From NCBI GenBank assembly GCA_965223905.1, contig CBDCXV010000002.1:160001-224000 (forward strand): a stretch of DNA of 64,000 bases. Direction: 5' to 3'. This DNA comes from Candidatus Latescibacterota bacterium (GTDB taxonomy: Bacteria; Latescibacterota; UBA2968; UBA8231). A program made the position numbers and the translations under genes. Shown one piece after another: positions 12,741 through 58,523 of the stretch; within the stretch, counting starts at the first letter, position 1, and every line of letters starts with the position of its first letter. Under the pieces are notes generated by a model that saw nothing but the letters and a program-made list of their open reading frames with translations, was not told where the DNA came from and made no database searches.

Positions 12741-13118
12741 GTCAGACTGTCCCGCGCACTCTGTGCGGCAACGGTGTCCAGGCCCGGCCTTCCCGGCTTC
12801 CGGGAAGCCGAAGCAAGTCCCTCCCCAGGGACCTAAAGGACACCACAATTTTTGAAAAACATCCTCGGGACCGACCGATCCCATGGACGGGCGCACCCCG
12901 GCTTGGCGGGCAGCGCATCCCGAAGGCCAGGGCTATGTACTGACTGTTCCGATCGGTGTTGTGAATGGGTATGGACGGAGCCTTTCCGCCCCGAACCGGC
13001 TCTGCCCAACACGTAGAACCAAAATGGCCGGGTTAGACAGCAGTCTGGCTGTGAAAGTCTTCGGTTTTGTTGTAAGTTGAACACGTTTCCATCAGGGCCA
13101 ACTCACGAGGGAATCACC

Positions 13119-16100
13119 ATGGATAAACATCGAAGGATCATTTCTCAGCTTGGGCAGCTTACGCAAAAAATCGCCCATCCTACGCGGCTGGTGATCGGCG
13201 GTCTCGTGGCACTGGTATCCGGCGCCGGTGCGGAACCGCTGCTCGAAGGGCGGGTGCGGCTGTTCGCCGACCTGGGCAGCTCGCTGGGCGCCGCCACCGA
13301 TGAGAGCGGCTATTTCGCGCTGCCCCTGAACGCGCTGCGCCAGGCCGCCCCCCGGCCGGCGCACATGCAGCTGGGGCAGAACTACCCCAACCCGTTCAAT
13401 CCCTCGACGATCATCCCGTATCAGCTGCCCGCCCCGACTCGGGTGCGGCTGGAGGTGTTCAACATTCTGGGGCAGCGGGTTGCCACCCTGGTCGACGGGA
13501 AACAGGCGGCCGGTTTTCACACCGCGACATGGAACGCCACAGATGCTTCAGGGCGGGGTGTGGCAACGGGGGTGTACCTGTACCGGCTGCTGGCCGACAG
13601 GGAGCGCTTGACGCGGTCGATGGTTCTGCTGGACGGACCGGTGAGCCCGGCGGGAATAGCTCCCTCCGGTGGCGGGATCTCAGCCGGTCCGCAGGGCACC
13701 GACGGTGCAGCGGATCCATCAGGTAGGACTGCGGGAGCGATAGCATCAGGGTCGTGGGTCCCCCCCGGCGGCCAAGGGCAGGTCTACGGGTTGACGGTCA
13801 CTGGCCCGGGACTCATCCCCTATGTCGACCCGGCCTTCCGGGTGGGGGACGGTCCGGTCGAAATCCGGGTGGAAACGCTGGCCAGCTTGCCTCGCGGAAA
13901 GATGGCCGCAGACGGCCTGCTGGGAGACGTCGACGGCAACGGCCAAGTCGACCTCTCCGACGCCCTGCTGGTCGCCTCGTACAGCGAGGACCCCTCCCTT
14001 TCCATTCCCAACGGGGATATCACCCTGGGGGACGTCAACCGGGACGGTCAGGTCGATCTGGCCGACGCCCGCCTCATCGTGGCGTACCATGCGGACCCGT
14101 CCGACCTGTCGCTACCGGAAGGGATCGGCGCCCCGGTGGGGGCAGATGACGAAGGACCGCGGCTCTACTGGACGGACGCGGGCAGCGACAAGATCCAGCG
14201 GTCCCGCCTCGATGGCTCCGGGGTCGAGGACGTCGTCGACAGCGGCCTGGTCTATCCGCGCGGCCTGGCGGTGGACCTGGCGGCCTCCAAGCTGTACTGG
14301 ACCGACTACGGCACCGACAAGATCCAGCGCTCCAACCTCGACGGAACCGAGGTGGAAGACCTGGTGACCGAGGGCCTGAAGGAGCCGTTCGGTATCGCCC
14401 TCGATCTGGGCGGCGGCAAGATCTACTGGAGCGACTGGGGCACCGACAAGATCCAGCGATCCAACCTCGACGGCTCCGAAATCGAAGACCTCGTCGCCAC
14501 CGGTCTGAACGAGCCCTACGGCCTCGCCCTCGACCTGGGGGAGGGCAAGATCTACTGGACCGACTGGGGCAGCGACCGGATTCAGCGCGCCAATCTCGAC
14601 GGCTCACAAGTCGAGGACCTGGTCACCGGGCTCAACCAGCCCCGGGGGATCGCCCTCGATCTGGAAGACGGCCGCATGTACTGGCCCGACTGGGGCACGG
14701 ACAAGATCCAGCGCGCGAATCTCGACGGCTCCGAGGTGGAAGACTTGGTTACCGAGGGCCTGCGGACCTCCCAGGCGATCGCCCTCGATCTGGGCAGCGG
14801 CAAGATGTACTGGACCGACTACGGCACCGACAAGATCCAGCGGGCCAACCTCGACGGCAGCCAGGTCGAGGATCTGATCACCTCCGGTCTGAAGGAGCCG
14901 TACGGCTTGACCCTGGGCGCCGGCCTGCCGGCGCAGATCCTGAAAGTAAAGGGCGCCTCGGCGACCCTGAACCTGGCCGGCCGCTTCCGCGACCCGGAGG
15001 GGGGCGCCCTGACCCTCGCCGCCGCCTCCAGCGACGAGGCGGTCGCCGCCGCGAGTCTGGCCGACTCGGTGCTGACCATCGCGCCGGTGACCCCCGGCCG
15101 GGTGACGGTCGCGGTGACCGCCCGCGACGAGGGGGGCCGGGCTGCCACCCTGCCGGTGGCCGTGACCGTGTACCCGGCCAACCGCCCCCCGGTGGCCAAA
15201 GCCCTGGCCGACCGCAAGATCCGCATCGGCAGCCCGGACCGGGTCGAGCTGACCAGCGCCTTCACCGACCCGGACGAAACAGACGTGCTGACCTACACGG
15301 CCGCGTCGAGCAACGAGGCGGTGGCCACCGCAGCCATCGAGGGGACCGGCCTGCGCATCACCCCCAAGAGCATCGGGCAGACCGGGATCTCAGTGACCGC
15401 CCGCGACCCGAAGGAACTGGAGGCGTCACTGAGCTTCAGGGTCACCGTCGAGCCCAAGCCGCCCCCCAGGCCGCCCCGGACCCCGCCCGGCTCGGGCAGT
15501 GACGATGGTGATGGTAATGGTGATGACGGTGGTGGTCCGGTAACCCCCCCGCCCCCGACGCCTCCACCTCCACCGCCGACGCCTCCGCCTACCCCACCTC
15601 CGCCGGGTCAGAACAACGCCCCCACCTTCGACGAGAGGCCGAGCGCCACCCGCAGCGTCGCCGAAAACACCGAGGCGGGTGAAGACATCGGCAACCCGGT
15701 GACCGCGACGGATAGCGATGACGACAGGCTGACCTACAGCCTGGAGGGGACGGATGCGGGGAGTTTCACCCTCGCCTCCACCAGCGGCCAGTTGCGCACC
15801 CGCTCGGGCGCCACCTACGACTACGAGACAAAGCCCCGCTATTCTGTGTCGGTGAAAGCCGAGGACGGACATGGCGGCATTGCCGCCATTGACGTGACCA
15901 TCCACGTGGCCGACGTGAACGAACCGCCCGGGAGGCCGTCTGCCCCGTGGGTTGAGCCGGCCTCCTCCACCAGCCTGACCGTGAGCTGGACCGAGCCGGC
16001 CAACACCGGCCCCGATGTCCACGACTACGACGTGCAGTACCGCAAGAGCGGCAGCTTCCTCCCCTGGCCGCACGACGGCCCCGGTACCACTACCACGATC

Positions 16101-44676: not shown

Positions 44677-45538
44677 TCACGCGGAATTGCGCGTGTCCGG
44701 CTGGAGGATGTGGGCGGCCTCCCTGTCGATGAAGTCCTGGAAGTCCGCGGCGAGGGCGAGGCTCTCGCCGGTGGCGATGCGGACCGGGGAGCGCCGCGTC
44801 AGCTCGGCGAACCCGTCGACGTCCCGGGGCCGCAGGGCTTCCTCGAGGAAATGGACTCCGTACCTGGCGGCGACCTCGGCGGCGCGCACCGCGTCATCGA
44901 CGGAGTGACCGGGATCGAGGTACGCCGGGCAGCCGAAATCGAGCATCAGCAGCATCTCCGGGCCGATCCCCTCGCGAATGGCGGCGAGGGTCTCCTCGTC
45001 TTCCGCGGAGAAGTGGTTGCCCCAGCCCAGCTTCACCGCCTTGAAACCGCGCTCCCGGTAAGTGACGCACTCGGCGATCATCTCTCCGGGCCGTCCGCCG
45101 CCGGGGGGCCTCCGGGTCGTAGTCGTGCGGGAAGGCGCTGGTGCTCGCGTAAACCATGATTTGGTTCTGGACGACGTCGCCGACGAGCCGGTGAACCGGC
45201 AGCCCGGCCGCCTTGCCGGCGATGTCCCAGAGGGCGATGTCGACCGCGGCAAGGGCGTTGACGGCGATCCCTCCCTCGTCGCCGCGGCCGAACCAGCCGC
45301 CGTCGAACAGTCGTTGCCAGAGCTCGGCCGGCCGCGTCGGGTCGGCGCCGAGGAGGAGGCCGCGGAACGGAGGCTCGGGTCCGGGCAGCTCCGGGGAGGA
45401 GTCGAGCAGCGCCGACACCGGGCGGGTCCAGGAGGCGGTGGCGCCGATACCGGTGATGCCGGCGTCGGTGTCGACCTCGACGAGGGGGAAGTCCCGGGGG
45501 AAGCCGCGGCTGACGACGCGGATGTCGGTGATCTTCAT
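44677..45538 (-). pseudogene. Mandelate racemase/muconate lactonising enzyme family, frameshifted (~45100) and C-terminally truncated
   Basis: MKITDI..VEVDTDAGITGIG, AAVDIALWDIAGK..GLPV..L.G, GFKAVKL, LMLD, FLEE, IATGE, ILQPD then stop. Confidence 0.85.
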
Positions 45539-45596: not shown

Positions 45597-46553
45597 CTAC
45601 GGCATGGAAAGCTTTCTTGTTCCTATCACTTCTACAGAAGTTCCTTCCTGCTCGAAGGCCGGGGGTGGATCTTCGGAATGTGGATCTCCGGAATAATATT
45701 GAGACCAGCGAAGTTCGTACTGGTCCCGATCCATCAGCGTAATGTCGTCCGTTTCACCCTCGTTGCCTTCATCGAGTCCGTATCCAAAGGAGACGCCGCC
45801 CAAATCAGATAGGATATAGCGGTTGTGGAGCTGCTCGCCTCCTTGTTTCTGGCGCAACCTGCGCACCCGGACTTGCCTTTCCTCGGGGACACATCGGGGA
45901 AGCCTCCTCTCGCACTCTTCCCGAAAAAACTCCTCCGTTCCCGTATGATCCGCCGCAGTATGTACCTCAATGCACTTCGGCATCCCGCCGGGACGCTGGC
46001 GAATCATTGCTTCAAGGAAGGCTTCAAAGGGACGCCGGTAACGAGGCTTCTCGGGCCCAAAATAAGGGTCGACGAAAATCACAATCGAGCTGCAGCGGAG
46101 TAAAGAAGCCACAGCCTCGGCCATGTCTGAAGCTTTCCTCGGCACGGTGAGCCCACGCTGCACCGCCCAATGTTCTGTAGCGCTGTCATCCAGGTCGCTC
46201 TCCGTCAGCACCTGAGCGTGGCTGTTCGGGTTGGTTCGGGCAAGGATAGCGTGGAAAGGCCGCTCGTCGTGCTCGCGCTCGGCGTTCTCTCGCCAACTTG
46301 TGGAATCATCCCACTGAACATTGCTCCGCCGAACCATTCGTTCTGATAGCCGGGCGAGGAGTTCCACGAGTCGGGTTTGAGCTAAATCATCGGTAGTTTC
46401 AATGGCGTCCCACACGAGTCTTTTCCATCGCTTTGGGTACCGGGAGACAACTCTTCCCTGGCCAAACTCGAAACTTTGCATGTAATGGCGGCAATCACGC
46501 CGATCCGTCCAGCCCGCTACCAATTGGGGTTCCAGTGCATACTCGTAAATCAC
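45597..46553 (-). CDS. Uncharacterised protein with C-terminal PLD-like (MIT_C-type) putative nuclease domain
   Basis: 'IFVDPYF' and 'LHNRYILSDLGGVSFGYGLD' motifs; starts 3 nt after the ATPase stop. Confidence 0.6.
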   Translation of the reverse strand: MIYEYALEPQLVAGWTDRRDCRHYMQSFEFGQGRVVSRYPKRWKRLVWDAIETTDDLAQTRLVELLARLSERMVRRSNVQWDDSTSWRENAEREHDERPFHAILARTNPNSHAQVLTESDLDDSATEHWAVQRGLTVPRKASDMAEAVASLLRCSSIVIFVDPYFGPEKPRYRRPFEAFLEAMIRQRPGGMPKCIEVHTAADHTGTEEFFREECERRLPRCVPEERQVRVRRLRQKQGGEQLHNRYILSDLGGVSFGYGLDEGNEGETDDITLMDRDQYELRWSQYYSGDPHSEDPPPAFEQEGTSVEVIGTRKLSMP

Positions 46554-46556
46554 GCT

Positions 46557-48389
46557 TCAGAACAGTTCCTTCGAGCGCTCGGGGAAGAAGCCTTCGGGCC
46601 ATGGTCGCTCGAACTCGCCGTCGGCCGTCACCGGGATGTGGAGAATCTCGGTATCCCCTCGCCCGGGCTGGACGTAAAGGACGGAGACCTGCTCCGGGTG
46701 GACTTCGGGGAGGCCCTTTGGAAGCTCGCCATCGGTAGTTTCCCGGATCCGCCGCAGGATGCGCAACAACAGGTGTTCGCTGTGAGTCTCGATGAGGAGG
46801 GTGTTGCCGCTCCCGCCAAGGGCCGATTCGATAAAGACATCACCCAGCTCGGCCTGAAGCGCCGGGTGCAGGTGAATCTCGGGCTGCTCGATCGCCAGGA
46901 GCTTCTTTTGCCAAGCATAGGCGGAGACCAGCACCGGGAGCACTTGGCTGACTCCGATGCCGACATCGCGGTGGCTCACGGGAGTGCCGGTGCGTTTGTC
47001 GATGAGAACGAGATCCTGAAGTACTTCGGGCCGTGCCTCGACCAGTTCTTCGGCCCAGCGTTCAGACAGGGCCTCCTCGTCGCTCGCCGCAGCCACGAGC
47101 TCCTCGATCTCGGGGATGATGTCGTCCGGGTTTTCCGCGTTGTACCCGGCGACTTGCTCGGAAACTTCATCCGCCAGCCTCGCCAGTTCAGGTTCCCCGT
47201 CCCCCTGCCGTCTTCGGAGAAGGGAAGCAGCGAGATCGTAAAGCGCCTTGTGAAGTTTGGACGGAAGCTCCCTTGAGACTACTGAAGCGGGCAGCAGGTC
47301 GCGCACTTCGAGCTGGTAGGGTGTCTTCAGGCGGTCCGGGTTGCCAAGCCACCTGTTCACCCGCTGTCGGACATCCTCGTTGGTGCGCACCACGTCCCAG
47401 GCATAGCCGCCCCCTGCGAACCAATTGGGGTCATGATGTTGTGAGAAAGCCAGATGGCGAGGCGGGTACGACCTCAGCGGACCGAGGTACTGGAGTTGGC
47501 GTATCTCGTTCTCAAGCACCGTGACGATTACCTCGACGAGCTCAGTGAACGCCAGGGCCAGAAACCGCTGGGCAGGGGATGAAAGATCCTCCTGTCCCCG
47601 TCCGCGAGAAGTGATGTCACCCCAGCCTTCCGCATCCTCCCCGATCCGGGGGAACAGGCCGCTGCTCCTGGCGGCAATGTCGGGGACCAGGGCGTCGATC
47701 TCCTTGCGGAGGTCGTCGACCAATTCCCCCTCACGCATTTCCTGGGTGGGTGTCACCCGCTTCAGAACCTCTGGAAGGAGCTCGCGGAATACTGGATGGC
47801 CGGAGTCGAACCGATCCAGGCGCAGGAGCCCGCCCGGCCGTGTGCTCATGGAGAGCAGCGGTGTGCCGTCCACCTCCAGCGCGAAGCGCTCGAGAAGTGG
47901 ACCGCTCTCCCGGCCGAACCCGCGAGCCCGGTCCCCTGACCGGGTCCGGTGATCGCTCGTGATCCCTTCCCCGATCCCCAGTTCCACCGCTATCTCGCGA
48001 GCCCGCTGCAGAAGCTCGGCCGCGCGTTCGGGACTCCGACTCGGGTATCCGTAGGTTTTTGAAAAAGCACCCACCCGCAAAAGCTCCGCCACGCGTTCGG
48101 TGAGGCGCCCCGGATCGAGTTCGAAACCCAGCTCGACCCGGCGGTCTCGGTCGCGCCGGTGCACGTATTGGAGAAAACCTCCGAGGTCTATGGTCTCTCC
48201 ACCGATCCGGGGCCGGTGGGTGTCGAGGTCTCCGGTCTCGATGGCGTGGTGGGCGAGTGCCAGGGCGTGCAGCACGCTCGACTTACCGGCGCTGTTGGCC
48301 CCATAGATCAGTGTGATCGGCCGCAGCGGTATCCTCTGGCTTGCGCCGAATGCCTTGAAGTTGGCGATGCGGAAAGCGGTGAGGTTCAA
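46557..48389 (-). CDS. ABC/AAA_21-type ATPase with DUF3696-like C-terminus
   Basis: NFKAF..ITLIYGANSAGKSS, YLGPLR, DVGIGVSQVLPV, IEQPEIHLHP, ETHSEH, WPEGFF. TTG start with gggaga RBS. Confidence 0.9.
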   Translation of the reverse strand: MNLTAFRIANFKAFGASQRIPLRPITLIYGANSAGKSSVLHALALAHHAIETGDLDTHRPRIGGETIDLGGFLQYVHRRDRDRRVELGFELDPGRLTERVAELLRVGAFSKTYGYPSRSPERAAELLQRAREIAVELGIGEGITSDHRTRSGDRARGFGRESGPLLERFALEVDGTPLLSMSTRPGGLLRLDRFDSGHPVFRELLPEVLKRVTPTQEMREGELVDDLRKEIDALVPDIAARSSGLFPRIGEDAEGWGDITSRGRGQEDLSSPAQRFLALAFTELVEVIVTVLENEIRQLQYLGPLRSYPPRHLAFSQHHDPNWFAGGGYAWDVVRTNEDVRQRVNRWLGNPDRLKTPYQLEVRDLLPASVVSRELPSKLHKALYDLAASLLRRRQGDGEPELARLADEVSEQVAGYNAENPDDIIPEIEELVAAASDEEALSERWAEELVEARPEVLQDLVLIDKRTGTPVSHRDVGIGVSQVLPVLVSAYAWQKKLLAIEQPEIHLHPALQAELGDVFIESALGGSGNTLLIETHSEHLLLRILRRIRETTDGELPKGLPEVHPEQVSVLYVQPGRGDTEILHIPVTADGEFERPWPEGFFPERSKELF

Positions 48390-48479
48390 TTCCGGTCTCC
48401 CGCAGGAGTCGCCATATCCGCGGTCATCATAGTGTTCCTTTTTTCTACCGCTCGAACTGCTCGAATTCGCTTGCCGCGT

Positions 48480-48670
48480 GGGAAATCCCTTCAAGGCAAA
48501 GGCGATCGATCAGGTCAAGGGAAGTCGAAGTCCATTCGTCGTCCTGGTGCTGCTGGTAGGTCCGGAAGGTCAGCTTTGCCGGCGCAGCAGATCGCCGTTA
48601 GTATCTCGATTGATGTGGGGAAGTACGCACCGAGTGGTCTCGGCATGGACTCGTCAAACAACAGCTTCAT
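48480..48670 (-). pseudogene. DUF5615/VapC45-like PIN toxin remnant
   Basis: MKLLFDESMPRPL.. overlaps the DUF433 stop; a frameshifted 'NGDLLRR' follows, then the reading decays. Confidence 0.65.
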
Positions 48671-48887
48671 CCGGGTCCCCGGTCAGCGCCACCTTCGCCG
48701 CTTTGAGCACCGCAATCGCCTGGTCGCGTGACACCGTCGGATAGCTGTCTAGGAAGTCATCGAGGCGATCCCCTGCTTCCAGGTGTTCGATCAGGATACG
48801 TATGGGGATCCTGGTTCCGGGAAACACCGGGGTTCCGCCGAGAATGCCCGGATATCTACCGATAACTTTGTCGTTCATTTGATTCAC
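48654..48887 (-). CDS. DUF433 antitoxin
   Basis: PGILGGTPVFPGTRIPI..L...LEAG..LDDFL..YPTV. Confidence 0.92.
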   Translation of the reverse strand: MNQMNDKVIGRYPGILGGTPVFPGTRIPIRILIEHLEAGDRLDDFLDSYPTVSRDQAIAVLKAAKVALTGDPDEAVV

Positions 48888-48917
48888 CTTAGTTGTTCAA
48901 TTGGCACTTCGGGGCTG

Positions 48918-50126
48918 TTACCGATTTTTTGTGGAATATTTGGCAGGAGCGGTGAGTGTGCCCGAGAAGGCACGGTGCAAGATGCCGATGAACAGTGAAC
49001 TAATTCTGTCATGATTTGATCCCGTCAGATTCAGAATCTCCTTTGTCGCCTGTACCTGCATGGAGAATTCCTGCTGAAGTTCGAATGGCGGCACTGGAAT
49101 TTGGAGGGCCTTTAATCTGACGCCAGTCAAATGCGAGAAAGTCATTTTGGAGGCAGTGTCCCTTAATGCTCCGATATTTGCCAGTCGCCAGAGCAGAAAT
49201 ACGATATACTCAGGAGTCGCGGCATTTTGATAAGGACGCACCCTATGAAGAGCTTTCTGGAAGTAGCACTCCGGCAACTCATCGTTCCAGATCGCGCTGC
49301 GGCCCACTTCCCCGCCCTCACAAATTAGAATATCTCCCCTCCGAAGCCTGAACTCTTCACGGTCTGAGTCATTGAAGTCCATCTGGAGAACTTCCTGTAA
49401 ATCGATCCGATCCCAATAGACGTTTGCGTTTCGGAGGTAAGGGCGGGGATCCTTCCCAGTCTGCTGTTTCTGATCGAGCATTTTGCCGAGTCGAGATTCA
49501 CAAATCATGTCAAAACGTTTAATTGGCCAGCCCATCGGATTCGTTGCCGGGTCGCCGAACATCTTGATGAAAAGTGCAGGGAGGATGTGCCCGGCTTTGG
49601 CGTCGGCCTCCGCGCGGAGGCGACGGAGGCGGTAGGCTTGGTCGAGGATTTCAACGATGCGTCGTTGTTCGGAAAGCGGTGGAAGAGGGATTTCCATTTC
49701 CTTGATGTCGTTGTCGGAAACCGCCGGGTAATTCGCGCCTCTGACGCGTTCTGACAACACAGCGACAAAATCACGTGTGATCGTGAGATAAAACAAGAAG
49801 CGAGGTTCTACAACGGCATTATTTGCTCGTAGAACGCAAAAACCAGTTGAAGCAATTTGGCCATCGAGCTGGGCCGGAACCATAGCGACGGCGTTGAGGT
49901 TCGGACGTACCGTCGACACCAGGATGTCATCTTTTCGAATGTTTTTTCGTGCACGGCTCGGAGCATCAGCCCCTAACATGGTTTGATGTTCTGCAATTGT
50001 CTTATGGATACGGTCGATTCCGGCGATGTCAACGTAATTGAACTCGCCGGAAATCTCGCGTCGAGGATCGCATTGCTCAGTGGGTTCGCAGACGTCACTG
50101 ATAGTTGCGATGTCCCACCCCATCAC
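48918..50126 (-). CDS. hsdS: Type I R-M specificity subunit
   Basis: Two TRDs, IPLPPLSEQRRIVEILD, MFGDP, IPVPPFELQQEF; lower GC. Confidence 0.95.
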   Translation of the reverse strand: MMGWDIATISDVCEPTEQCDPRREISGEFNYVDIAGIDRIHKTIAEHQTMLGADAPSRARKNIRKDDILVSTVRPNLNAVAMVPAQLDGQIASTGFCVLRANNAVVEPRFLFYLTITRDFVAVLSERVRGANYPAVSDNDIKEMEIPLPPLSEQRRIVEILDQAYRLRRLRAEADAKAGHILPALFIKMFGDPATNPMGWPIKRFDMICESRLGKMLDQKQQTGKDPRPYLRNANVYWDRIDLQEVLQMDFNDSDREEFRLRRGDILICEGGEVGRSAIWNDELPECYFQKALHRVRPYQNAATPEYIVFLLWRLANIGALRDTASKMTFSHLTGVRLKALQIPVPPFELQQEFSMQVQATKEILNLTGSNHDRISSLFIGILHRAFSGTLTAPAKYSTKNR

Positions 50127-50521
50127 GCCCCCTCCATCTCTTCCAACTTCCCCCGTAACTGTTCAAGCAACGCCTCGACAAGCCCGAGCGCCGCTTTGCG
50201 ATAGATCGGCTCGGTACTCGCATCCACACCCCCATACCGGAACTCGACGGCATACGGCGTGTACACGGCCAGCTCTCGAAAAGCCGTCATGTCGACAGCC
50301 CGCGCGGCGAGCAGATCCACCAACCCCTCGATGTTGTGGGTAAGCGGGTAGGTCTCTCCGAGCAGTGCGAGCCAGGCCTTGAAGGATTTCTCGGCGGCCT
50401 GCTGCACGTGAAATCCGAAAACTTCGTCGGAGATTTCGTCCGAGCGGCACATGAATCGAAGTGCTTCGACATCGCGCTCGGCCGCATCGAGCAACATCCT
50501 GGCGCACTTAGGGTCGCTCAT
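50123..50521 (-). CDS. HEPN domain protein
   Basis: FHVQQAAEKSFKAWL..THNI..L, YAVEFRY. Confidence 0.88.
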   Translation of the reverse strand: MSDPKCARMLLDAAERDVEALRFMCRSDEISDEVFGFHVQQAAEKSFKAWLALLGETYPLTHNIEGLVDLLAARAVDMTAFRELAVYTPYAVEFRYGGVDASTEPIYRKAALGLVEALLEQLRGKLEEMEGA

Positions 50522-50843
50522 AAAGCACCCGCCCTTCCCGCAGTGCCCGCGCCAACACATGGTTGAGGGAGTCGCGCCAGTAGTCCACGTCATCTCGAGA
50601 GTAGACAAGGACGTCGGCTGCGACGGGAAAACCCGCCAGCGCGTGGTAGAGTCTGACCATCTCTTTGTGGCGGCTTCGTTCCGGACCGAACGGCTCGGCT
50701 TCCAAGACCACCAGATCGACGTCCGATTCCTCTCGCTCGTCGCCCCGGCCACGGGAGCCAAAGAGGATCACCTGCTCGGGATCGACCTCGTCGACGATGG
50801 CCTGAACCATCCGGTCGATGAGGGTGTCGGTGATCCGGGTCAT
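50508..50843 (-). CDS. Minimal nucleotidyltransferase (MNT)
   Basis: PEQVILFGSRGRGD....SDVDLVV...EGRVLYE. Confidence 0.92.
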   Translation of the reverse strand: MTRITDTLIDRMVQAIVDEVDPEQVILFGSRGRGDEREESDVDLVVLEAEPFGPERSRHKEMVRLYHALAGFPVAADVLVYSRDDVDYWRDSLNHVLARALREGRVLYERP

Positions 50844-52486
50844 TGCTCCACCTCTTCGAGCAGTTTCTCCAGCCCGGCGGTAATCTCCCGCTCGATCGCC
50901 AGCACCTCGCGGATCAGCTCCGCGGGATCCTCGTCCGGAACCGGCTCGGCAACGCGGGGCTTGTAGCGGGAGGCGGCGAGGTTGAAGTCGTTCTCGACGA
51001 GGGTCTCGAACGAGGCCCACCAGCAGCGGGGTTCGTCGCTGCCCGCGTCGAGCACGGCGCCGGCCTCCTCGCCGGGTGGTTTCTCGAAGCGCGATTCCTT
51101 GTAATCGTTCCAGGCCGACAGTAGCCCGGGGATGTCGTTCTCCCCCGGTGTCTCGGGACGGCCGCCTCCCTGGATCTTGTCGGGGTCGTAGCCGTCGTTG
51201 CGGATCTCGTAGAACCACACCTGCTTCGTCGCCGGACGGCCTTCTTCCGGCTCCGTTGCCGGGCGCCGCAGGACGAGCACGGAGGTCTTGACGCCGGCGT
51301 ACGGTTTGAACACGCCGGCCGGCAGCGATACCACCGCCTGCAGCTCGTACTCCCGCAGGAGCTTCTCGCGCAGCTCCTTGTGAGCTCTCGTCGAGCCGAA
51401 GAGCGCGCCCTCGGGCACGACCACGGCGCAACGTCCCCCCGGCGCCAGGGAGCGCAGCATCAGTGCGATGAACAACAGCTCGCTCTTTCTCGATTTTGTT
51501 GGCAGATCCTGGCGAATTGAGTCCCTGGGGATCTGGCCGGCAAAAGGCGGGTTCGAGAGGATCACCGCGTAGCGCCGGTTCAGGTCGTCCTCGGTGAGTC
51601 CGCTCATCTCGGAGAGTACGTTGGCGCGCTTGAGGCGGGCATGGCGGATCCCGTGGAGCACGAGATTCATGACGGAGATCCGCATCATCTGGCGCGATAC
51701 GTCGGTGCCGTACATCGATGCCTCGAGCCGGCTCCAGTCGGGAATCCTTTCCCCCGGTCCCTTCCGGTAGGTCTGGAGATTGGGGATCTCCTTCTTCGCC
51801 TCCTCGAGCGTCTGCCCCCGCTTCTCGAGCCAGTCCTCGCCGTAGACCGGCACTTCCTGAATCTCCTCGCTGTAGCGGGCGAGGATGTGATCGACGACGT
51901 CGATCAGGAAACCGGCCGTGCCGCAGGCCGGGTCGTACACGGTGTCGCCCAGGTCGGGACCGGTCATCTCGACCATGAAGGCGCGGATCTGGCGCGGGGT
52001 GCGGAACTGGCCGTTCAGCGCCGACTGTCCGAGATGGGTGAGCAGGTATTCGAAGATGTCGCCCTTGATGTCGGGCCCGAGCTTGCGGAAGTCGATGGAG
52101 TCGAACATGTCGATCACCTGCTTGAGCACGTTCGGATCGACGATCTCGAGCACGGCGTCGCGAAAGTACTCTGCCACCTGCGGATCGTCCTTGACCAGCG
52201 ACGCCATGTACGGGAAGACCTCGTCGCGGACGAAGTTGCGCAGATCCTCTCCGCTCTTGAAGCGCCACTTGGACCAGCGGAAGCGCTCGGCCTGCGCGGG
52301 GAAGAGGAGGGCGCGGTTCCCGGCGCCGAGCCGGCCTTGGAGCTCGCGGGTGGTTTCCTCCTCGTCGAGGAGTTTCAGGTAGATGAGGTAGGAGATCTGC
52401 TCGATGTAGGTGACGGGATTGGTCACGCCACCGGCCCACAGGATGTCGGTGATCTGGTCGAGTTGGCGCCGCAGTGTCTGGTCCAT
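50840..52486 (-). CDS. hsdM: Type I R-M N6-adenine methyltransferase
   Basis: IEQISYL, GQFRTPR, DPACGTAGFL, NPPF, LP.GVFKPYAGVKT. Confidence 0.96.
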   Translation of the reverse strand: MDQTLRRQLDQITDILWAGGVTNPVTYIEQISYLIYLKLLDEEETTRELQGRLGAGNRALLFPAQAERFRWSKWRFKSGEDLRNFVRDEVFPYMASLVKDDPQVAEYFRDAVLEIVDPNVLKQVIDMFDSIDFRKLGPDIKGDIFEYLLTHLGQSALNGQFRTPRQIRAFMVEMTGPDLGDTVYDPACGTAGFLIDVVDHILARYSEEIQEVPVYGEDWLEKRGQTLEEAKKEIPNLQTYRKGPGERIPDWSRLEASMYGTDVSRQMMRISVMNLVLHGIRHARLKRANVLSEMSGLTEDDLNRRYAVILSNPPFAGQIPRDSIRQDLPTKSRKSELLFIALMLRSLAPGGRCAVVVPEGALFGSTRAHKELREKLLREYELQAVVSLPAGVFKPYAGVKTSVLVLRRPATEPEEGRPATKQVWFYEIRNDGYDPDKIQGGGRPETPGENDIPGLLSAWNDYKESRFEKPPGEEAGAVLDAGSDEPRCWWASFETLVENDFNLAASRYKPRVAEPVPDEDPAELIREVLAIEREITAGLEKLLEEVEQ

Positions 52487-52496
52487 CCCGTTCCTT

Positions 52497-55218
52497 TCAG
52501 CTCGCAGTCCTGAAAACGTCCTCGTCCAGCTGTCTCAACAACCTGCCTGAGCCCCTCCTCACCGAACAGCTCTACCCCCCTGCCGGCGGCGTCGAGAATC
52601 GACAGCGGCGGCTCGAACAGGTCGTTCAGGCGCACCCGGCCGGTGGCGATTCCCCGGTTTTTGAGCAGGCAGAGGTACTCCGCTTGCTGCGGGGTGAGGG
52701 CGCGCACTACGAGCCAGGCCCGGAAGGCCTCTTCCAGCTTCTCCTCGCGGCTCTTGATGCGCAGCCGCCCGAGCGCGGCGCGGATGAAGTCGACGAAGTT
52801 GCCTCCCGGGTCGCGGTAGGCGCGGCGCAGGTTCTCCTGGTTGAAGTAGTGCTCGGGCTGGTTGAGGCGGCGGGCAAGCTCCTCCTCTTCGGTCCGGCTC
52901 GAGATGCTCTTCGTCGCGCACCTTGCGGAGGAGCGGATCGTCGGCCGCCCGGGAGCGAATCGTCTCCACCCAGCGGGTTACGTACTCCTCCTTGTCGACG
53001 CGTTCTCCCTCGGGGCCGACCTCGACGTAGGTGACCGCCTCCAACCACTCGTCCTCCAGCCCGAGCTCGACGAGATCCCGCGTCTCCGGCCCTGTCCTGG
53101 GGCCGCTCGGGGCATGTCCTCCCGAAGTGCCGGTGAACACGTCGGTATCGCTGTCATTGAAGTACTGGTGGTTCCTGAAGAAGTCGTAGATGACAAATTT
53201 CCGCTTGTCGATATGCGGCGCAGTGCGCGTGCCCCGGCCTCGCATCTGCTGGTAGAGAATGGGGCTTCGCACCCGCCGGCAGAGCACGAGGTGGAGGATC
53301 TCGCGGCAGTCGAAGCCGGTGTCGAGCATTCCAACGCTCACCGCGACCATGGGCAAGGTTTCGGTCTTGAACCGGCGAATCAGGGTGTCCGGGTCGGCCA
53401 CGTCGGAGGTGATGACCTCGGCGTAGCGGCCCTTGTATTCGGGTGCAGCTCGTTCAAATACTGTGCCAGTCTCGCCGCGTGGTGCTTGGTGATGGCGAAG
53501 ACGATCGCCTTGCCCGGGCCCGGGTCCTGCCCGGGTGCCAGTTCCGCATAGCTCTCCCAGGCAAGCCGGTCGAACTCCTCCATCATCAGGCGGTTGGTCT
53601 CTTCGTTGGTCCAGCGCCGTTCGAACTCGACTGGGTCGTAGTGCTCGTCGTCGAGATCGGCCCCCTCGGCGAGGATCTCGGTGATGCCCGTGGCGAAGCG
53701 GTAGGGCACGAGGTATTCCTCGTTGAAGGCATCCTTTATTGAATAGGAGACGTCCGGTTTGCCCGGCTCGCACTGGTAGAAGTCGTAGGTGTTGCGCTCG
53801 ATGAAGCTTGCCGGCGTGGCCGTGAGTCCGATATGGAGGGCGTCGAATCGCGTGAGCGCTCCCTGCCAGGCGCCGTAGATGGAGCGGTGGCATTCGTCGG
53901 CGATGACGATGTCGAAGTAGCCGGCGGTATACTCGTCGACGCGGCCGATCATGGTCTGCAGCAGGGTAACGGTGATCTGCTGCTCCTGGCGCGCCATGCC
54001 GGGCCGCAGCCAGTAGCTCGAATACGCTCCCAAGACGTCCTGGATGGCTTCCAGGGCCTGCTTGGCGAGCTGGTCGCGGTCCGCCAGGAAGAGAATTCGC
54101 TCGGCCCAGCCTGCCTGCAGGAGTCGCTTCAGGTAGAGGCAGATGAGGTCGGTCTTGCCGGTACCGGTCGGCAGCTCGATCAGGAAGCGCCGCCTGCCGA
54201 GCTCCAGCGCGTGGTCGAGCGCCTGCATCGCGTCGGCCTGGTAGGGCCGCACCGTGCGCGTCTCCCCCTGGCGGATGTAGTGCTCCGGGATTTCGACGGT
54301 GGCGAGCGGCCTGCGCGTCTCCCGCGCCTCCACCATGCGCTCGAGGTCCCGCTGCGAGAAGAAGCCGGCGATGGGGCGGGCGTCGTCGTTCTGGTAGTCC
54401 CAGAAGTAGGTCAGCTCACCGTTGGTGAGGAAGATGAAGGGCGCTTCGAGCGCCTTGGCGTAGGGCAGGGCCTGTTGCTTCGCCACGTAGGGGTTGATGG
54501 CGTTCCTCTTGGCCTCGATGACGGCGAGCGGGCGGCCGCGCTGGTCGTAGAGGACGTAGTCGGCGCGGCCGGTTGAAGACTCGTCATCCGCGGCTTCGAG
54601 CTGGCAGACGAACTCGCCGATGACGCGGAGGTCCCCTTCTGCGCCTGGGTCGAAGACGAGGTCCTCGTAAGCCGGATCCGGATTGAGCGGCTGCAGCCGG
54701 ATTTCGCGATGGCTCCAGCTGTCCCCATCCGGTTCAGCTTCTTTCGTACTGCTGTATTTCTTGACGGAGAACTCGCCTCCGAGCGCCGGATCGGTGCAGC
54801 CGCGGTGCCAGACGAGGACGAGCTTTCCCTCCCTGGTCCCGCCGCGGTCCGTCCGAAACAGACAGTAGGAACCGTCGGGGATGGCCGGCTCCATAGAGTG
54901 CCCTTCGATGCGGGCAACGAAGTGGTCGCGGGTGAGCCGGACGCGGCCCGGCACCGCCATCCAGCCGATTTCGTCATGCTCGGTTCCGACGGTCTGGTCC
55001 GGGCTGAATTTTCCTGCCGCGGCAACGAGACCGTAGACCGGGGCGTGCGTTTCGAATGGCCTCGCTCCCACGCGGTCGACGATTCCGGCGCGACCGGGTG
55101 CGGAAGCCGCCTGGACCTCGGTACCGACCATCGACTGGTCGTCCGCGTCCCAGCCGGACTGCGCCAACAGTTCGTCGATAACTATGCGGGCGTCCGCCTC
55201 GTTTTCGCGCCGGTTCAT
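52497..55218 (-). CDS. hsdR: Type I restriction subunit (EcoEI-like) with inserted S24 peptidase; three apparent single-base frameshifts (~53445, ~52895, ~52533)
   Basis: GRADYVL..AVIEAKR, RPYQ, PTGTGKT, DECHRS, LTATP, MLDTGFD, QMRGRGTR. Confidence 0.9.
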
Positions 55219-55252
55219 CTTGTTCTTCCTCGTCCATGGGAAATTAGATGAA

Positions 55253-55268
55253 TGCAAAGCGCGTGCCA
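55253..55268 (-). promoter_or_regulatory. Sigma54 -24/-12 promoter upstream of hsdR
   Basis: Minus strand TGGCACG-CGCT-TTGCA, an exact match to TGGCACG-N4-TTGCW. Begins immediately after the activator stop and ends 34 nt before the hsdR ATG. Confidence 0.88.
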
Positions 55269-56777
55269 TCATTCGCCCACCCCGTAGCGTTTCATCCAGT
55301 TGGTGAGGGTCTGGTAGCTGGGCAGGCCGACGAGGTCGGCCGCCCTGGTCTTGTTGCCCTGCGCCTCGTCCAGGGCCCTCTCCAGGTAGTGGCGGGCCAC
55401 GGATGCCAGAATTCCGGGCAGGTCGAGACCGTCGCCGAGGGGCTTGCCAAGCACCGATCCCTTTTCGGTTTCGCCCGCGGGCAGGAGGGCGTCGCGAAGG
55501 TCCTCCGTCCTCAGCGTGGCTTCCGGGGTCCAGATCGCCGCGCGTCCCAGGGTGTTCTGCAGTTCGCGGACATTTCCGGGCCACGGGTGCGCGAGAAGAA
55601 GGTTTCTCGCTCCGGAAGAAAGTTCCTTCTCCACGAATCCCGGCTGCCCCCGCCCCTCCCGGTTCACGAGGGCGAGAATGTGATCGATCAGGATCGGGAG
55701 ATCGTCGCGCCGGTCCCGTAACGGGGGCAGTGGCAGCACCGCCACCGCCAGGCGGTGGAAGAGGTCTTCGCGAAAGGCGCCTGTCGACACTTCGGACAGG
55801 AGAGAGCGGTTGGTGGCGGCGATCATTCGCACGTCCACCTTGCGGCTGCGCGAGGTGCCGACCGGAAGCACCTCCCCCTCCTGGAGCGCGCGCAGCAGCT
55901 TCACCTGCGCGGGCTTGGGAAGCTCTCCCACCTCGTCGAGGAAGAGGGAGCCCCCGGATGCTTCCTCGAAATGGCCTTTGCGGTCCTTCACAGCCCCGGT
56001 GAAAGCCCCCTTTACGTGACCGAACAGCTCGGATTCGACGATCTCCGGAGGAATGGCGCCGCAGTTGACGGCCACGAAAGGCTTGTCGCGCCGCGGACTG
56101 GTGCGATGGATGGCGCGGGCGAGAAGCTCCTTGCCGGTACCTGTCTCCCCTTCGATCAGCACCGGCACGGAGCGCGGGGCGACCCGGCGCGCCCGCAGGA
56201 TCACGCGCTGCATGGCCTGGCTCCGGTGCAGGATCTCCTCGAATTCCGGCGCCTCCGGGGAGAGACCGGCGCTGAGGCGCTCGAGCTCCTCGTCCGGGCG
56301 GCGCAGCAGATCCGGAAGGAAGTCTGCTGAAATATCGAAGGGGACGGACACCGTGCTGACGCCGTGCTGCTTCGAGGACTCGATCAGCTCCGCGGGAAAG
56401 CGCGTCTTCGCGAGGATGATCCATACCGCGGCCATGGCCGGCGTGCCCGGGCTCAGGTGGAAAGTGAGCTCAGTGTCTCTGGGGCCGCCGGCCAAGGCCG
56501 TCTCGCAGGCGCGGACCGCGGCGACGTAGATCTCGCCGAATTGGGTAGGACCGGTGAGCTCTTCGTGGACCAGGTGAAGGGTGGGGCCTTCACATCGCTT
56601 TTCGAGCCACTGCCGGTAGGGGCGAACGGCGCCGGCCTCGTGGTCGAACAGCAGATAGGCGTCATCGAACTCGCGCTCCATCAGGGCCTGGGCAACCGGC
56701 CCGGCTCCGGTTGTCGGCTCCTCTTCGGGAGCGTCCAGGTCCGTATTTCCAATCCAGGTGATGAGGATTCTGCGCAT
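55269..56777 (-). CDS. RtcR-like sigma54 enhancer-binding protein (CARF-like N-domain, AAA+, Fis HTH)
   Basis: N-terminal '[10 protein letters not shown]...[12 protein letters not shown]'; [50 protein letters not shown]. Confidence 0.93.
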
Positions 56778-56784
56778 GGGAACA

Positions 56785-56814
56785 ATGCTAACAAGAAAAA
56801 TTGTGATTCCGCAA
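56785..56814 (-). promoter_or_regulatory. Possible sigma70 promoter giving a leaderless activator mRNA
   Basis: TTGCGG-N18-TAGCAT with extended TG, 7 nt before ATG 56777; no SD. Confidence 0.4.
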
Positions 56815-57195
56815 GTTTGTTTATTCTTGATGTGGGGCGTGTGGCAGTAGGTAAGGTCTCTGACAGGGTTAGGCTACCAATTTGGCGAAATACACCGATT
56901 CTGGGCGGAGCACAGTCAGGTTCTACCCTGTAAGGGGAAAGAAGCCACTCACCACCTCGAAATGTCCGGATTGTCTTCCAATGGTGCTCGAGAAAGGGGG
57001 TGCGGAGGTTACAAGGACACGGAAATAGCCGTTATTTTGGCTCGAAATGGGCAATACATGGCTTTATAGCCGAAATATAAAATAATAATAGAAGAATTTA
57101 TCGCGATATAACTATTTATTTTTTGTTGAATCAAGGTATCTTTGATGGCAGGTCCCCAAACCTGGTGCCACAACCTGGAAAGGAGCCACCTCCTC

Positions 57196-58227
57196 ATGAA
57201 AATCGACCCCGAGAGCCTTCGATGCCTTCGCCAGAAAAAAAAGCTGTCACGCGCCCGGCTTGCCGAACGGTCTGGAATCGCGGTACGAACCATTCAGCGT
57301 CTGGAAAACGAACCGCAGCGATGTCAGAAATCGCGAGAGGACACGCTGAACCGGCTAGCCAAGGCACTCGATGTCGAAACGGATGTGCTTACCGGCCAGT
57401 CACCACTTCCCGAGTTTGATAAGCCCCCTGCCTCTGCCCCCAAGGGGGTCCAGATCGGCGCGCAGGTCGCTCCTTTGACCCGGCTCTTCTACGACCTCGT
57501 TAAGCGCCGATACGGCGTCAGCGTCACTGAGATCATCAACATGGCGCCGCTTTTCTTCGCGCTTCTGGCCGAGGGAAGTCTTGCTTGGAGGCGCATAAAA
57601 ATAGAGGAGGCAGAAGAAGCGAAAGGTCATTTGGAGGGGATCGAAGGGTTCTGGATTGGGAGCCTTGTATCTGCCTCAATAGTCATGGAAGAAGGGATTG
57701 GGGCGGAAATTGATTCCATCGAAAAAGCCGACCTTTTCGGAGAGCATCTCTTCAGGGTCGAATCTAGTTGGATGGATGATTTGTTCGACCCCTCCGCCAC
57801 CAACCCGTTCGCAAGCCATTTGCGTGGGTTGAAAGATGAACTCGCCAAACCCGGCGTCGTCGACGTGGGGGAGGGCGCTCTCGATTTCAGATCGTCGCTA
57901 AAATTCCCCGACTACGACATTTGCCGTGACGAACTCGACGACATGGCCAACGGTTCTTTCAACGCAAAGAAGGCTCTTGAAACTGGCTACGCGCGGCTCT
58001 CCGAAATTCCCGAGGAACTGATGGGAGAAGACGCCGGCGAGGAGCGCGCGAAATGGCTCGAAGACAGACTGCCGGATCAGTTTCAGAAAATCCTGAAGGA
58101 TGAGAAGGTTGGAGACGAGATCGTAGAAATCGTGGCAAAAGACCCAGAAGGCACTTGGAAAAGGGTCTTGGAAAAAGCGGGTGCCAATGAGGCGGATACC
58201 AGTAGTAAGGTGGGAGACAACCAATGA
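57196..58227 (+). CDS. XRE-family HTH protein with large unknown C-terminal domain
   Basis: LRCLRQKKKLSRARLAERSGIAVRTIQRLE..TLNRLAKALDV; aaggag upstream. Confidence 0.85.
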   Translation: MKIDPESLRCLRQKKKLSRARLAERSGIAVRTIQRLENEPQRCQKSREDTLNRLAKALDVETDVLTGQSPLPEFDKPPASAPKGVQIGAQVAPLTRLFYDLVKRRYGVSVTEIINMAPLFFALLAEGSLAWRRIKIEEAEEAKGHLEGIEGFWIGSLVSASIVMEEGIGAEIDSIEKADLFGEHLFRVESSWMDDLFDPSATNPFASHLRGLKDELAKPGVVDVGEGALDFRSSLKFPDYDICRDELDDMANGSFNAKKALETGYARLSEIPEELMGEDAGEERAKWLEDRLPDQFQKILKDEKVGDEIVEIVAKDPEGTWKRVLEKAGANEADTSSKVGDNQ

Positions 58228-58523
58228 GCATCGTCTATACACAACATGCCGAGACGCGCATGCAGCAGCGGAGCATTCGCGAAAAGGATATTCCACTCAT
58301 CCTCGCCTTGGGAACGCAAGTTGAGGACGAGACCTGGATTTTGCTCAGAAGAGATGTTGCGCGGGAAATCGAGATTCGCAAACGGGAGATCCAAAAGCTG
58401 AAACGGCTTGAAAACTGCAAGGTCGTCATGCTCGGCCGACACGTCATCACTGTCTATCCCTCACGGCCTGCGGATCAGAAACGAACACTACGCCGCGCCA
58501 GGCAGAACGGAATGGTGAAATGA
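58224..58523 (+). CDS. DUF4258-like small basic protein (putative RelE-fold toxin)
   Basis: YTQHAETRMQQRSI...VITVY; ATGA overlap with the XRE gene. Confidence 0.7.
   Translation: MSIVYTQHAETRMQQRSIREKDIPLILALGTQVEDETWILLRRDVAREIEIRKREIQKLKRLENCKVVMLGRHVITVYPSRPADQKRTLRRARQNGMVK

Follow-up and report, generated by a model that had tools for sequence, protein, structure and literature searches.

A predicted CARF-type sigma-54 activator with a conserved candidate promoter at its stop codon heads a type I restriction-modification operon in a Latescibacterota genome

Type I restriction is usually treated as a constitutive barrier. Here we analyzed a 64-kb stretch of DNA from a Candidatus Latescibacterota bacterium (the window; 64,000 nucleotides, positions 160,001 to 224,000 of contig CBDCXV010000002.1 in assembly GCA_965223905.1), whose minus strand carries the gene of a predicted sigma-54 activator with a CARF-type sensor domain, a predicted sigma-54 promoter beginning directly at the stop codon of this gene, and behind it a type I restriction-modification (R-M) operon. 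If the wiring proposed below is true, it constitutes a ligand-sensing sigma-54 switch in front of restriction, which some bacteria would then step up only when an alarm signal arrives. In the main-text passages of Makarova et al. 2014 (PMC4012209), RtcR-like proteins with CARF, AAA and helix-turn-helix (HTH) domains are often associated with R-M and are predicted to be sigma-54 activators. The main-text passages of Bell et al. 2024 (PMC11090510) describe defence superoperons of co-oriented genes, type I R-M among them, with an RtcR homolog at their head; they propose cyclic-phosphate RNA for the signal and raise, for CoCoNuT, the idea of a feedback through RNases. RtcR itself is described, in the part of PMC7790460 dealing with its sensor, as having an inhibitory CARF domain that binds 5' tRNA halves ending in a 2',3'-cyclic phosphate, after which the protein oligomerises. 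For the last two genes of the operon the described counterpart is Menshen, in which NsnC, according to the passages of PMC12065111 on this protein, consists of a PIN-like N-domain and an effector C-domain and stands behind the DUF3696 ATPase NsnB.

With the RtcR_PspF2 regulators (PADLOC; main-text passages of PMC4012209), the activator of the window shares the architecture, a profile match at E = 2e-196, a type I R-M neighbour and the predicted sigma-54 dependence. Those passages give the association only, and the window adds the promoter position, candidate binding sites, an HsdR with a Peptidase_S24 insertion (S24-HsdR) and a pair of genes resembling nsnB and nsnC. As in CoCoNuT, so far as the passages of PMC11090510 describe it, an RtcR homolog stands at the 5' end of a co-oriented train that can hold type I R-M; in contrast to CoCoNuT of types II and III, Pfam and PADLOC revealed no McrBC-like CnuB/CnuC and no CnuH among the operon proteins, and the train ends after a protein of the PLD family. 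The words S24 and DUF3696 are absent from the main text of PMC11090510. RtcR of E. coli and Salmonella, the activator of rtcBA, has the same CARF-AAA+(GAFTGA)-HTH plan and serves as our working model for inhibition and oligomerisation. Whereas rtcR is divergent from rtcBA, the activator gene here is co-oriented with its target and has the promoter at its own stop codon; furthermore, the target consists of R-M and nuclease genes instead of rtcBA, the score against the RtcR model (336.8 bits) does not reach the cut-off of 650, and that model finds no match in the N-domain taken alone. The end of the train resembles NsnA-NsnB-NsnC of Menshen, within the passages of PMC12065111, in that an NsnB-like ATPase (E = 4.4e-43) is followed by a 318-residue protein (p318) for which a PIN-like N-domain and a C-domain of nuclease type are predicted; unlike in Menshen, no NsnA (ParB/DUF262) gene was found by Pfam between 45597 and 56777.

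Since this wiring was predicted by Makarova et al. 2014 and Bell et al. 2024, the window is a clean further example and not a new principle. The added detail, namely the statistics of the stop-codon promoter, both pairs of palindromic sites, the HsdR with its S24 insertion and p318 as a PIN-PLD partner, was compared with the main-text passages of both papers, whose supplements may already list some of it. The window gives a concrete parts list: a stop-codon promoter, two candidate site pairs and a compact cassette found in many phyla. Our literature search yielded predictions only and no experimental test of an R-M-linked CARF/sigma-54 wiring, in line with the first-pass annotation of the window, which was made from the sequence alone and knew of no characterised circuit. 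The term RtcR_PspF did not occur in the literature searched, and the words restriction, hsdR and RtcR are absent from a 2025 survey of sigma-54 regulons (PMC12316311).

The activator and the promoter at its stop codon

The activator (55269-56777, minus strand; 502 amino acids (aa)) is supported by its domains and motifs as a GAFTGA-type sigma-54 activator, that is, a bacterial enhancer-binding protein, as the first-pass annotation had read it. Pfam matched Sigma54_activat (PF00158, E = 1.2e-68), AAA_lid_14 and HTH_8 (5.7e-6; residues 461-498, a Fis-type HTH), and the Walker A motif GETGTGKE, the GAFTGA loop and the DEVGEL motif are found at residues 210, 257 and 281, respectively. The PADLOC profile RtcR_PspF2--CARF_AAA_HTH (PDLC01995) matched residues 3-500 at E = 2.1e-196, covering profile positions 2-480 of 481, and the unrelated PADLOC profile CARF4 matched residues 49-136 at 4.5e-12. 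Pfam gave no match within residues 1-180. For the full-length protein the best NCBIfam model was RtcR (NF038308) with 336.8 bits, under its equivalog cut-off of 650.

The N-domain was modeled with AlphaFold on a 9-sequence alignment, and the model supports a CARF fold. In Foldseek, all eight matches at E<=1e-3 were chains of Csm6 or Can2. When the model was compared with representative structures by VIA-align, the top 14 rows were all CARF proteins, with Z between 13.3 and 8.9 and root-mean-square deviations of 2.3-3.6 Å over 108-136 residues. The best rows were Csm6' (Z 13.3; 2.3 Å over 123 residues) and Csm6 (13.2), followed by Can2, Cam1, VC1899, Csa3, Can1 and others down to Z 8.9; four of the six rows after these 14 were also CARF, and generic Rossmann folds reached Z 8.8 at most. 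The CARF-type N-domain proposed in the first pass is thereby borne out by sequence profiles and by structural comparison alike.

A 16-mer, TGGCACGCGCTTTGCA, lies at 55268-55253 on the minus strand, directly behind this gene, and is a perfect match to the sigma-54 consensus TGGCAC-N5-TTGCW. It occurs once in the window, and none of 100 shuffled sequences contained it. The -24/-12 site begins at the base right after the TGA stop codon of the activator (55271-55269), and the ATG of hsdR at 55218, preceded by a GAGGA box, follows 35 nt past the last base of the promoter. In the 7.9-Mb genome, this is one of 24 perfect sites counted on both strands. The genome encodes an RpoN with an open frame of 509 aa (contig C1, position 1104795) and contains 16 strong sigma-54 activator genes; a single gene has the N-domain of this activator. 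The only RtcB gene of the genome is on a different contig (C10).

The conservation of the promoter was examined in relatives of the activator. The search for the N-domain family gave 5724 candidates, of which 3466 clusters reached E<=1e-5, and from a scan with one genome per species we used the best 80 of 381 loci, which span Latescibacterota, Acidobacteriota, Binatia, Myxococcota, Gammaproteobacteria, Planctomycetota, Spirochaetia, Gemmatimonadota and others. Five loci were left out of the promoter counts, two because the junction was off the contig (L037, L068) and three because the activator frame was shorter than 480 codons (L016, L054, L062). Counting sites with at most one mismatch to the consensus in the interval from -25 to +60 relative to the stop codon, we found the promoter at 53 of the 75 homologous junctions (21 of them perfect), as against 10 of 3410 random control windows of equal length. 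The site starts right after the stop codon in 36/75 loci (31 TGA, 5 TAA) and overlaps the last codons, at -19, in four. The conserved positions are the GG block at -24 and the GC block at -12 at a fixed spacing, and the five bases between them vary freely. The first-pass annotation had proposed to look for -24/-12 conservation at such junctions, and the outcome is positive. Of the five other host genomes searched, four have rpoN, and the fifth is a 3.1-Mb metagenome-assembled genome.

The same arrangement was seen from the HsdR side, in a set of 25 loci on metagenome contigs that carry a full S24-type HsdR N-terminus and are independent of the 80 loci. The activator is directly upstream of the S24-HsdR in 22 of the 25. 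Ahead of hsdR, at a distance of about 50 nt, 18 of the loci have a site with no more than one mismatch, and 22 have one with no more than two.

Two further sigma-54 sites, inside hsdR, were considered and rejected as promoters. One lies 458 nt past the activator stop codon. Relatives have it too, but since the invariant peptide W-H-R-G-C is encoded there, it was read as a coding coincidence. The other, 1800 nt past the stop codon, is not conserved.

Four Latescibacterota loci (L069, L071, L075 and L076) contain a second, near-identical sigma-54 promoter 3.5-5.2 kb past the activator stop codon. A/T-rich repeats spaced 19-20 nt apart occur at -165 to -130 upstream of these second promoters and bear a loose likeness to the palindrome motif described in the next section. 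This suggests that the second promoters may belong to a small regulon of the same activator.

Palindrome pairs in and before the activator gene

When 76 activator genes were aligned by codons (median G+C content of third codon positions, 0.78), the consensus third base was an A or T, at 60% or more, in only 5 of 502 codons. These are codons 386, 387, 390, 391 and 393, all within eight codons of each other. The stretch of codons 384-394 consists of two palindromes resembling AGAAA-N-TTTCT that lie 20 nt apart, about 330-360 nt upstream of the -24 element. In the window, this pair (55597-55627, minus strand) is formed by sites at 55617-55627 and 55597-55607. No other site in the window matches with one mismatch or fewer, and of the 58 single sites in the genome no other two are 19-21 nt apart.

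A related palindrome with the consensus ACAAGAATTCTTGTA is found just before the start codons of the activator genes. The window has two such sites (56792-56823, minus strand), of the CAAG-N4-CTTG type and 20 nt apart, at 56823-56812 (two mismatches) and 56803-56792 (one mismatch), 15-46 nt before the activator ATG. Scanning the 76 activator genes from -400 to +1900 for CAAG-N4-CTTG with at most one mismatch gave 146 matches. Of these, 78 are within 75 nt before the start codon, where 52/75 loci have at least one site and 26 have two; 31 cluster in one 25-nt bin, that of codon 390 (31/76 loci), and 37 are spread over the other 88 bins. Successive upstream sites are 20 nt apart in 22/29 pairs and 21 nt apart in 5/29. 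Five to six loci lack the in-gene element (L046, L059, L067, L078, L081 and partly L070); all of them lack the promoter as well, and they may represent a single clade.

One motif family at two fixed places with equal spacing has the look of tandem dimer sites of an HTH regulator, and we infer that the two pairs are candidate binding sites of the activator. The in-gene pair would be the candidate enhancer and the upstream pair a candidate autoregulatory site, a distal activator site, or both. The first-pass annotation had placed the enhancer probably inside the activator gene, an idea which gains support from the conserved DNA-level element at codons 384-394.

The proposed switch and its alternatives

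From these observations we consider it probable that the locus is a horizontally spread defence cassette, in which the CARF activator controls, via the sigma-54 promoter at its stop codon, an operon of type I R-M genes and a Menshen-like ATPase/PLD-nuclease pair. In this proposal, the activator would be made from its own promoter, and the same transcript, unterminated before hsdR, would probably keep the operon weakly expressed, at a basal level that suffices for methylation. Without its ligand, the CARF domain would hold the AAA+ domain inactive, by analogy with RtcR. A signal derived from nucleic acids would let the activator oligomerise on the tandem palindromes in and before its own gene, where its binding is presumed; RNA ends with a 2',3'-cyclic phosphate are the leading guess for this signal, again by analogy. 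Once bound, the oligomer would open the closed complex of sigma-54 at 55268-55253, thereby boosting hsdR and the genes downstream. HEPN RNases make cyclic-phosphate RNA ends, and the HEPN protein encoded in the operon could feed such ends back to the sensor. Finally, a LexA-like self-cleavage module in HsdR could add a second control at the protein level.

A number of observations weigh against this proposal. First, with the activator N-domain alone, no NCBIfam model matched and no RtcR match was obtained at E<=1, and searches of PDB sequences, a profile search included, yielded no useful match; therefore, an RtcR-like ligand is an analogy only. The N-domain model has moderate confidence (predicted local distance difference test score, pLDDT, 63.3), with residues 124-154 and 171-180 poor. 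Second, 22 of the 75 junctions have no site with at most one mismatch between -25 and +60; in four of these loci such a site is found farther downstream, at +102, +343, +493 and +1916. Third, the palindrome sites of the window itself are imperfect, with 1-2 mismatches, and at strict thresholds palindrome and promoter are not significantly associated across the loci (2x2 table, 30/24 vs 9/13); moreover, the upstream sites persist in 17 of the 22 promoter-less loci. A distance of ~350 nt between the in-gene element and the promoter is also farther than for most textbook enhancers. Fourth, no promoter of hsdM's own was detected: the 14 hsdR orthologs contain no conserved cluster of A/T-ending codons, in itself an uninformative result, and the absence of such a promoter would endanger the cell unless there is basal read-through. 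Fifth, hsdR of the window is not one open frame, which is taken up below.

In L009, the locus with the site at +1916, an open reading frame (ORF) of a DDE transposase (11643-13358) lies between the activator stop codon and the site, which is perfect. This arrangement indicates that an insertion split the switch from its promoter.

The hsdR gene (52497-55218, minus strand) encodes an EcoAI/EcoEI-type protein, in which Pfam matched ResIII, HSDR_N and Peptidase_S24, with EcoEI_R_C on the last piece. The frame changes near 53443, 52892 and 52533; thus the hsdR domains and the ATG at 55218 agree with the gene named in the first-pass annotation, while the continuous gene does not. Compared with L002, its closest relative (94% nucleotide identity over 7.1 kb), the breaks correspond to one missing and two extra bases, and hsdR is open in L002 and 13 other orthologs (14/14, 910-927 aa). 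Because hsdR is frame-broken in the assembly, its restriction arm may be dead in this organism, and we hold true inactivation to be slightly less credible than a local assembly error. Accepting inactivation leads to the view that the island is decaying: hsdR would be a pseudogene, at most the methyltransferase and the ATPase/PLD pair would work, and the promoter would be a conserved relic. Three frame breaks fall in the 2.7 kb of hsdR, while open frames run through the remaining long genes of the operon, about 7 kb in total. The 51-aa ORF after the DUF433 gene looks like a remnant, and an adjoining gene of the enolase family is frameshifted and truncated at its C-terminal end. The 16 other activator genes of the genome have full-length domain matches and no stop codons, indicating that indel errors are not frequent everywhere in this genome.

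A search for sequencing runs that contain this stretch returned no RNA run. We also compared contigs from the runs of four studies at the break sites, expressing the depth of contigs with the open frame relative to all depth. At 52532-52534, where the open form has one base fewer, the values were 4.36/13.6 in run X1, 3.04/3.04 in X3, (5.44 + 4.87)/10.3 in X4 and 26.2/26.2 in X8. At 52891/52894, again with one base fewer, they were 20.8/76.4 and 14.9/35.6 in X1, 4.32/4.32 in X3 and 26.2/26.2 in X8, with no depth in X4. At 53440, with one base more, they were 0/8.42 in X1, 8.33/8.33 in X4 and 26.4/26.4 in X8, with no depth in X3. In X1, the run that best covers the stretch, most depth agrees with the window, namely 8.42/8.42, 55.6/76.4 and 9.2/13.6 at the three sites; X1 may, however, be the source sample of the assembly and hence not independent. 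Every contig of X3, X4 and X8 that covers a site lacks the indel, yet these may come from other strains. Among close HsdR relatives (93-99% identical) in other assemblies, P0121, P0122, P0123 and P0125 are broken at differing positions, one form of 906 aa is intact while others end early, at 453, 488, 589 and 638 aa, and one of the broken ones is joined to an unrelated HTH-containing sequence. Such differing break points in near-identical sequences reflect either recurrent inactivation or random indel errors of long reads, the platform being our guess. The activator, promoter, hsdM, hsdS, ATPase and p318 genes, meanwhile, are all intact. Taking both sides together, the decay of the island is a serious contender which we are slightly inclined to doubt.

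A further explanation is that the operon is expressed for the most part constitutively, through read-through from the activator's promoter or undetected internal promoters, and that the sigma-54 promoter simply adds to this, so that restriction is not truly gated by a signal. The junction between activator and hsdR has no terminator-like hairpin, and the -24 element follows the stop codon without an intervening base, from which we infer that read-through may give basal expression. In 14 orthologs, hsdM starts 6-22 nt past the hsdR stop codon and no conserved DNA element exists inside hsdR; from the biology of type I R-M, some uninduced source of the methylase would be needed to keep the chromosome methylated. 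A scan for the sigma-70 consensus found one site where 1.8 were expected, but such a scan is uninformative in these phyla. On the other hand, the strict conservation of a strong -24/-12 site and the presence of the activator at 22 of 25 S24-HsdR loci argue that activation matters, and we regard a mere top-up as somewhat doubtful. These considerations also bear on the statement of the first pass that a nucleic-acid damage signal switches restriction on: activator, promoter and rpoN are in place, while the junction lacks a terminator or spacer, hsdR is frame-broken, and silence in the absence of the activator was assumed.

The switch could also work as proposed with a CARF domain that senses something other than cyclic-phosphate RNA ends, such as a cyclic oligonucleotide or, comparable to RtcA/RtcB, a protein partner. 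The best structural matches of the N-domain, Csm6, Can2, Cam1 and Csa3, are CARF proteins that bind cyclic oligoadenylates, and when the N-domain is taken alone there is no match to the RtcR model. RtcA and RtcB bind the CARF domain of RtcR directly, as stated in the relevant passage of PMC9650030, and the main-text passages of PMC4012209 note that in most RtcR-type CARF domains the basic residue after strand 4 is missing and that these domains may take distinct ligands. However, no cyclase gene is present in the operon, as judged from Pfam and PADLOC searches of its proteins, and the best NCBIfam score of the full-length activator is that of RtcR, though under the cut-off. The HEPN RNase in the operon, a presumed maker of cyclic-phosphate ends, also argues for RNA ends, yet HEPN relatives occur in only 5 of the 80 loci. 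We consider a different ligand possible and are inclined against it.

The S24 module of HsdR raises the idea that restriction is gated twice, by the CARF/sigma-54 transcription switch reading a signal of RNA-damage type and by a LexA-like module in the nuclease domain of HsdR, which we think unlikely on present evidence. Peptidase_S24 (PF00717) matched HsdR at E = 9e-8 (32.3 bits against a cut-off of 23.3), over the entire profile (1-116 of 116), and was absent from the description of hsdR in the first-pass annotation. The module comprises ~170 residues (about 40-212; 54583-55101) and is inserted between the first helix of HSDR_N and the catalytic core. A68/G69 (Ala-Gly), S108 in a G-x-S-M-E-P motif and K153 are invariant in 14/14 aligned HsdR sequences; by their likeness to LexA, we take A68/G69 to be the cleavage site and S108/K153 the catalytic dyad. 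PDB sequence searches with the S24 region found no match. With LexA, UmuD and lambda cI the module shares a full S24 profile and the invariant Ala-Gly, Ser and Lys; unlike in LexA-type proteins, it sits inside the nuclease domain of HsdR and not on a DNA-binding head. In this reading, the module would cut HsdR at Ala-Gly on RecA filaments or another cue and thereby turn DNA cleavage either off, which would amount to an inbuilt restriction alleviation, or on. The tight link of S24-HsdR genes with the activator, found directly upstream of 22 of 25, would agree with a pair of controls having evolved together as a unit.

That the conserved 16-mer is another element, for example an RNA or termination signal, is highly improbable: it is always at the 3' end of an activator gene, but its conserved positions are exactly the -24 GG and -12 GC of sigma-54 promoters with fixed spacing and five free bases in the middle, it stays before the cargo when an insertion parts it from the activator, and it recurs before further operons in the Latescibacterota loci.

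The gene train, its relatives and its neighbours

The activator is followed on the minus strand by hsdR, hsdM, an MNT gene, a HEPN gene, hsdS, a DUF433 gene, a 51-aa ORF, an ABC-type ATPase gene and the p318 gene. Pfam, NCBIfam and PADLOC back this order and orientation, and the junctions are overlaps or gaps of 0-58 nt, so the co-oriented, tightly packed train of the first-pass annotation holds from the activator to the last gene. In gene content the type I R-M set is complete, with hsdR, hsdM and hsdS all found by the same three resources. The island has a G+C content of 51-66%, as compared with 68-70% in the flanks; the genome, of 7.9 Mb in 11 contigs, is rated 93.6% complete.

HsdR has restrict_EcoAI (6.4e-56), ResIII, HSDR_N and EcoEI_R_C in common with HsdR proteins of the EcoAI/EcoEI type (type IB-like), from which it differs in its score (190 bits, below the cut-off of 550), in the S24 insertion and in the predicted sigma-54 control. 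The S24-HsdR subfamily comprised 201 clusters at E<=1e-5, most of them about 906-915 aa long with PF00717. HsdM (50840-52486, 548 aa) contains HsdM_N and N6_Mtase (PADLOC MTase_I, 8.5e-134). The start of the MNT-type nucleotidyltransferase gene (50508-50843, 111 aa; Polbeta, 1.2e-10, and NTP_transf_2) overlaps the hsdM stop codon, and its own stop codon is overlapped by the gene of the HEPN protein (50123-50521, 132 aa; Pfam HEPN, 6e-13), whose start was taken from the ORF listing. HsdS (48918-50126, 402 aa) has two target-recognition domains, with two Methylase_S stretches and a PADLOC Specificity_I match at 4.8e-65. The DUF433 protein (48654-48878, 74 aa; Pfam, 2.2e-15) is followed by the 51-aa ORF (48515-48670), which overlaps its stop codon. 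The first pass called this ORF a PIN remnant; the ORF is there, with fragments in three frames, and had no Pfam match at E<=0.01. The pieces in the other two frames presumably resemble the usual PIN-like partner of DUF433, and the ORF is probably a decayed partner gene of DUF433.

The last two genes encode the ABC-type ATPase with a DUF3696 tail, which is NsnB-like (46557-48494; AAA_21, AAA_15 and DUF3696; PADLOC NsnB, 4.4e-43), and p318 (45597-46553). DUF3696 was matched by Pfam at 2e-4, just at the cut-off. The ATPase gene is directly upstream of the p318 homolog in 18/18 loci. No Pfam, NCBIfam or PADLOC family matched p318 itself, a profile search of PDB sequences found no useful match, and a comparison of the p318 profile with CARF domains found nothing; among 19 relatives, three touch the PADLOC NsnC model weakly (E about 0.01). 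The model of p318, built on a 58-sequence alignment, has a pLDDT of 96.6 and exhibits two domains. Residues about 130-310 match the PLD superfamily (FAM83A, Z 10.1; MITD1, 9.9; bacterial PLDs, 9.6-9.7; SauUSI, 9.4; Nuc, 9.3; NucT, 9.1; NgoAVII, Zucchini and BfiI, 8.5-7.4), and residues 1-130 match PIN domains at Z 5-7. H243 and R245 are invariant in the 58 sequences, giving H-x-R instead of H-x-K, and in the PIN-like part no acidic residue is invariant among them. From this model p318 looks like an NsnC-like effector with predicted PIN-like and PLD-like domains; the label nuclease given to the last gene in the first pass thus finds no sequence-family match but agrees with a confident structure model. 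The p318 family has 3171 cluster representatives at E<=1e-3 and no Pfam model, and its members are mostly stand-alone proteins of about 300-330 aa. The S24 insertion of HsdR and this large, unannotated PIN-PLD family are separate leads for defence biology.

The cargo behind the promoter was counted in the 80 loci by tblastn (E<=1e-5). Relatives of hsdR were found in 45 loci, of the S24 insertion in 21, of hsdM in 46, of hsdS in 37, of the ATPase in 36, of p318 in 24, of the MNT protein in 8 and of the HEPN protein in 5. The order activator-hsdR(S24)-hsdM-hsdS-ATPase-p318 recurs across phyla at 72-96% HsdR identity, which points to horizontal spread. In 26 loci sampled with Pfam, the other first genes behind the promoter encode plain HsdR, DUF4145-HsdR (Myxococcota), HsdM, ABC ATPases, N6-methyltransferase/ATPase fusions of 1260-1340 aa, an SNF2/NOV_C helicase, DUF4007 and a TPR protein. 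As the cargo varies, the activator and its promoter appear to act as a portable switch.

Several loci are distinctive in their first genes. In Myxococcota and relatives (L024, L026, L034, L040, L044, L079 and others), HsdR has an N-terminal DUF4145 and no S24, and the -12 element reads TTGAA. The cultured bacteria Corallococcus sp. CA053C, Myxococcus qinghaiensis and Peristeroidobacter agariperforans encode this DUF4145-HsdR variant. In L010, L019, L023, L031 and L033, the first gene encodes an N6 DNA methyltransferase fused to an ATPase of the AAA_16/AAA_14 type, 1260-1340 aa in total. A distant activator with an N-domain 45% identical to that of the window (L117) is carried by a mobilizable plasmid of a cultured host, Rhodoferax antarcticus (NZ_CP019242, 37966-49637), and heads a train of VWA, PP2C phosphatase, kinase and large AAA genes of the CoCoNuT kind.

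Downstream, the island adjoins a relic of an enolase-superfamily (mandelate racemase-like) gene (44677-45538, minus strand), which is frameshifted and C-terminally truncated. At the stop codon of the last gene there is a GC-rich hairpin, whose fold is no better than that of shuffled sequences (z = -0.94). On the other side, divergent from the activator gene, 57142-58523 (plus strand) encodes a 361-aa XRE-type HTH protein, and this gene is overlapped by a small DUF4258-like ORF that scores 23.7 bits and so falls short of Pfam's cut-off of 25; the G+C content is lower in this stretch.

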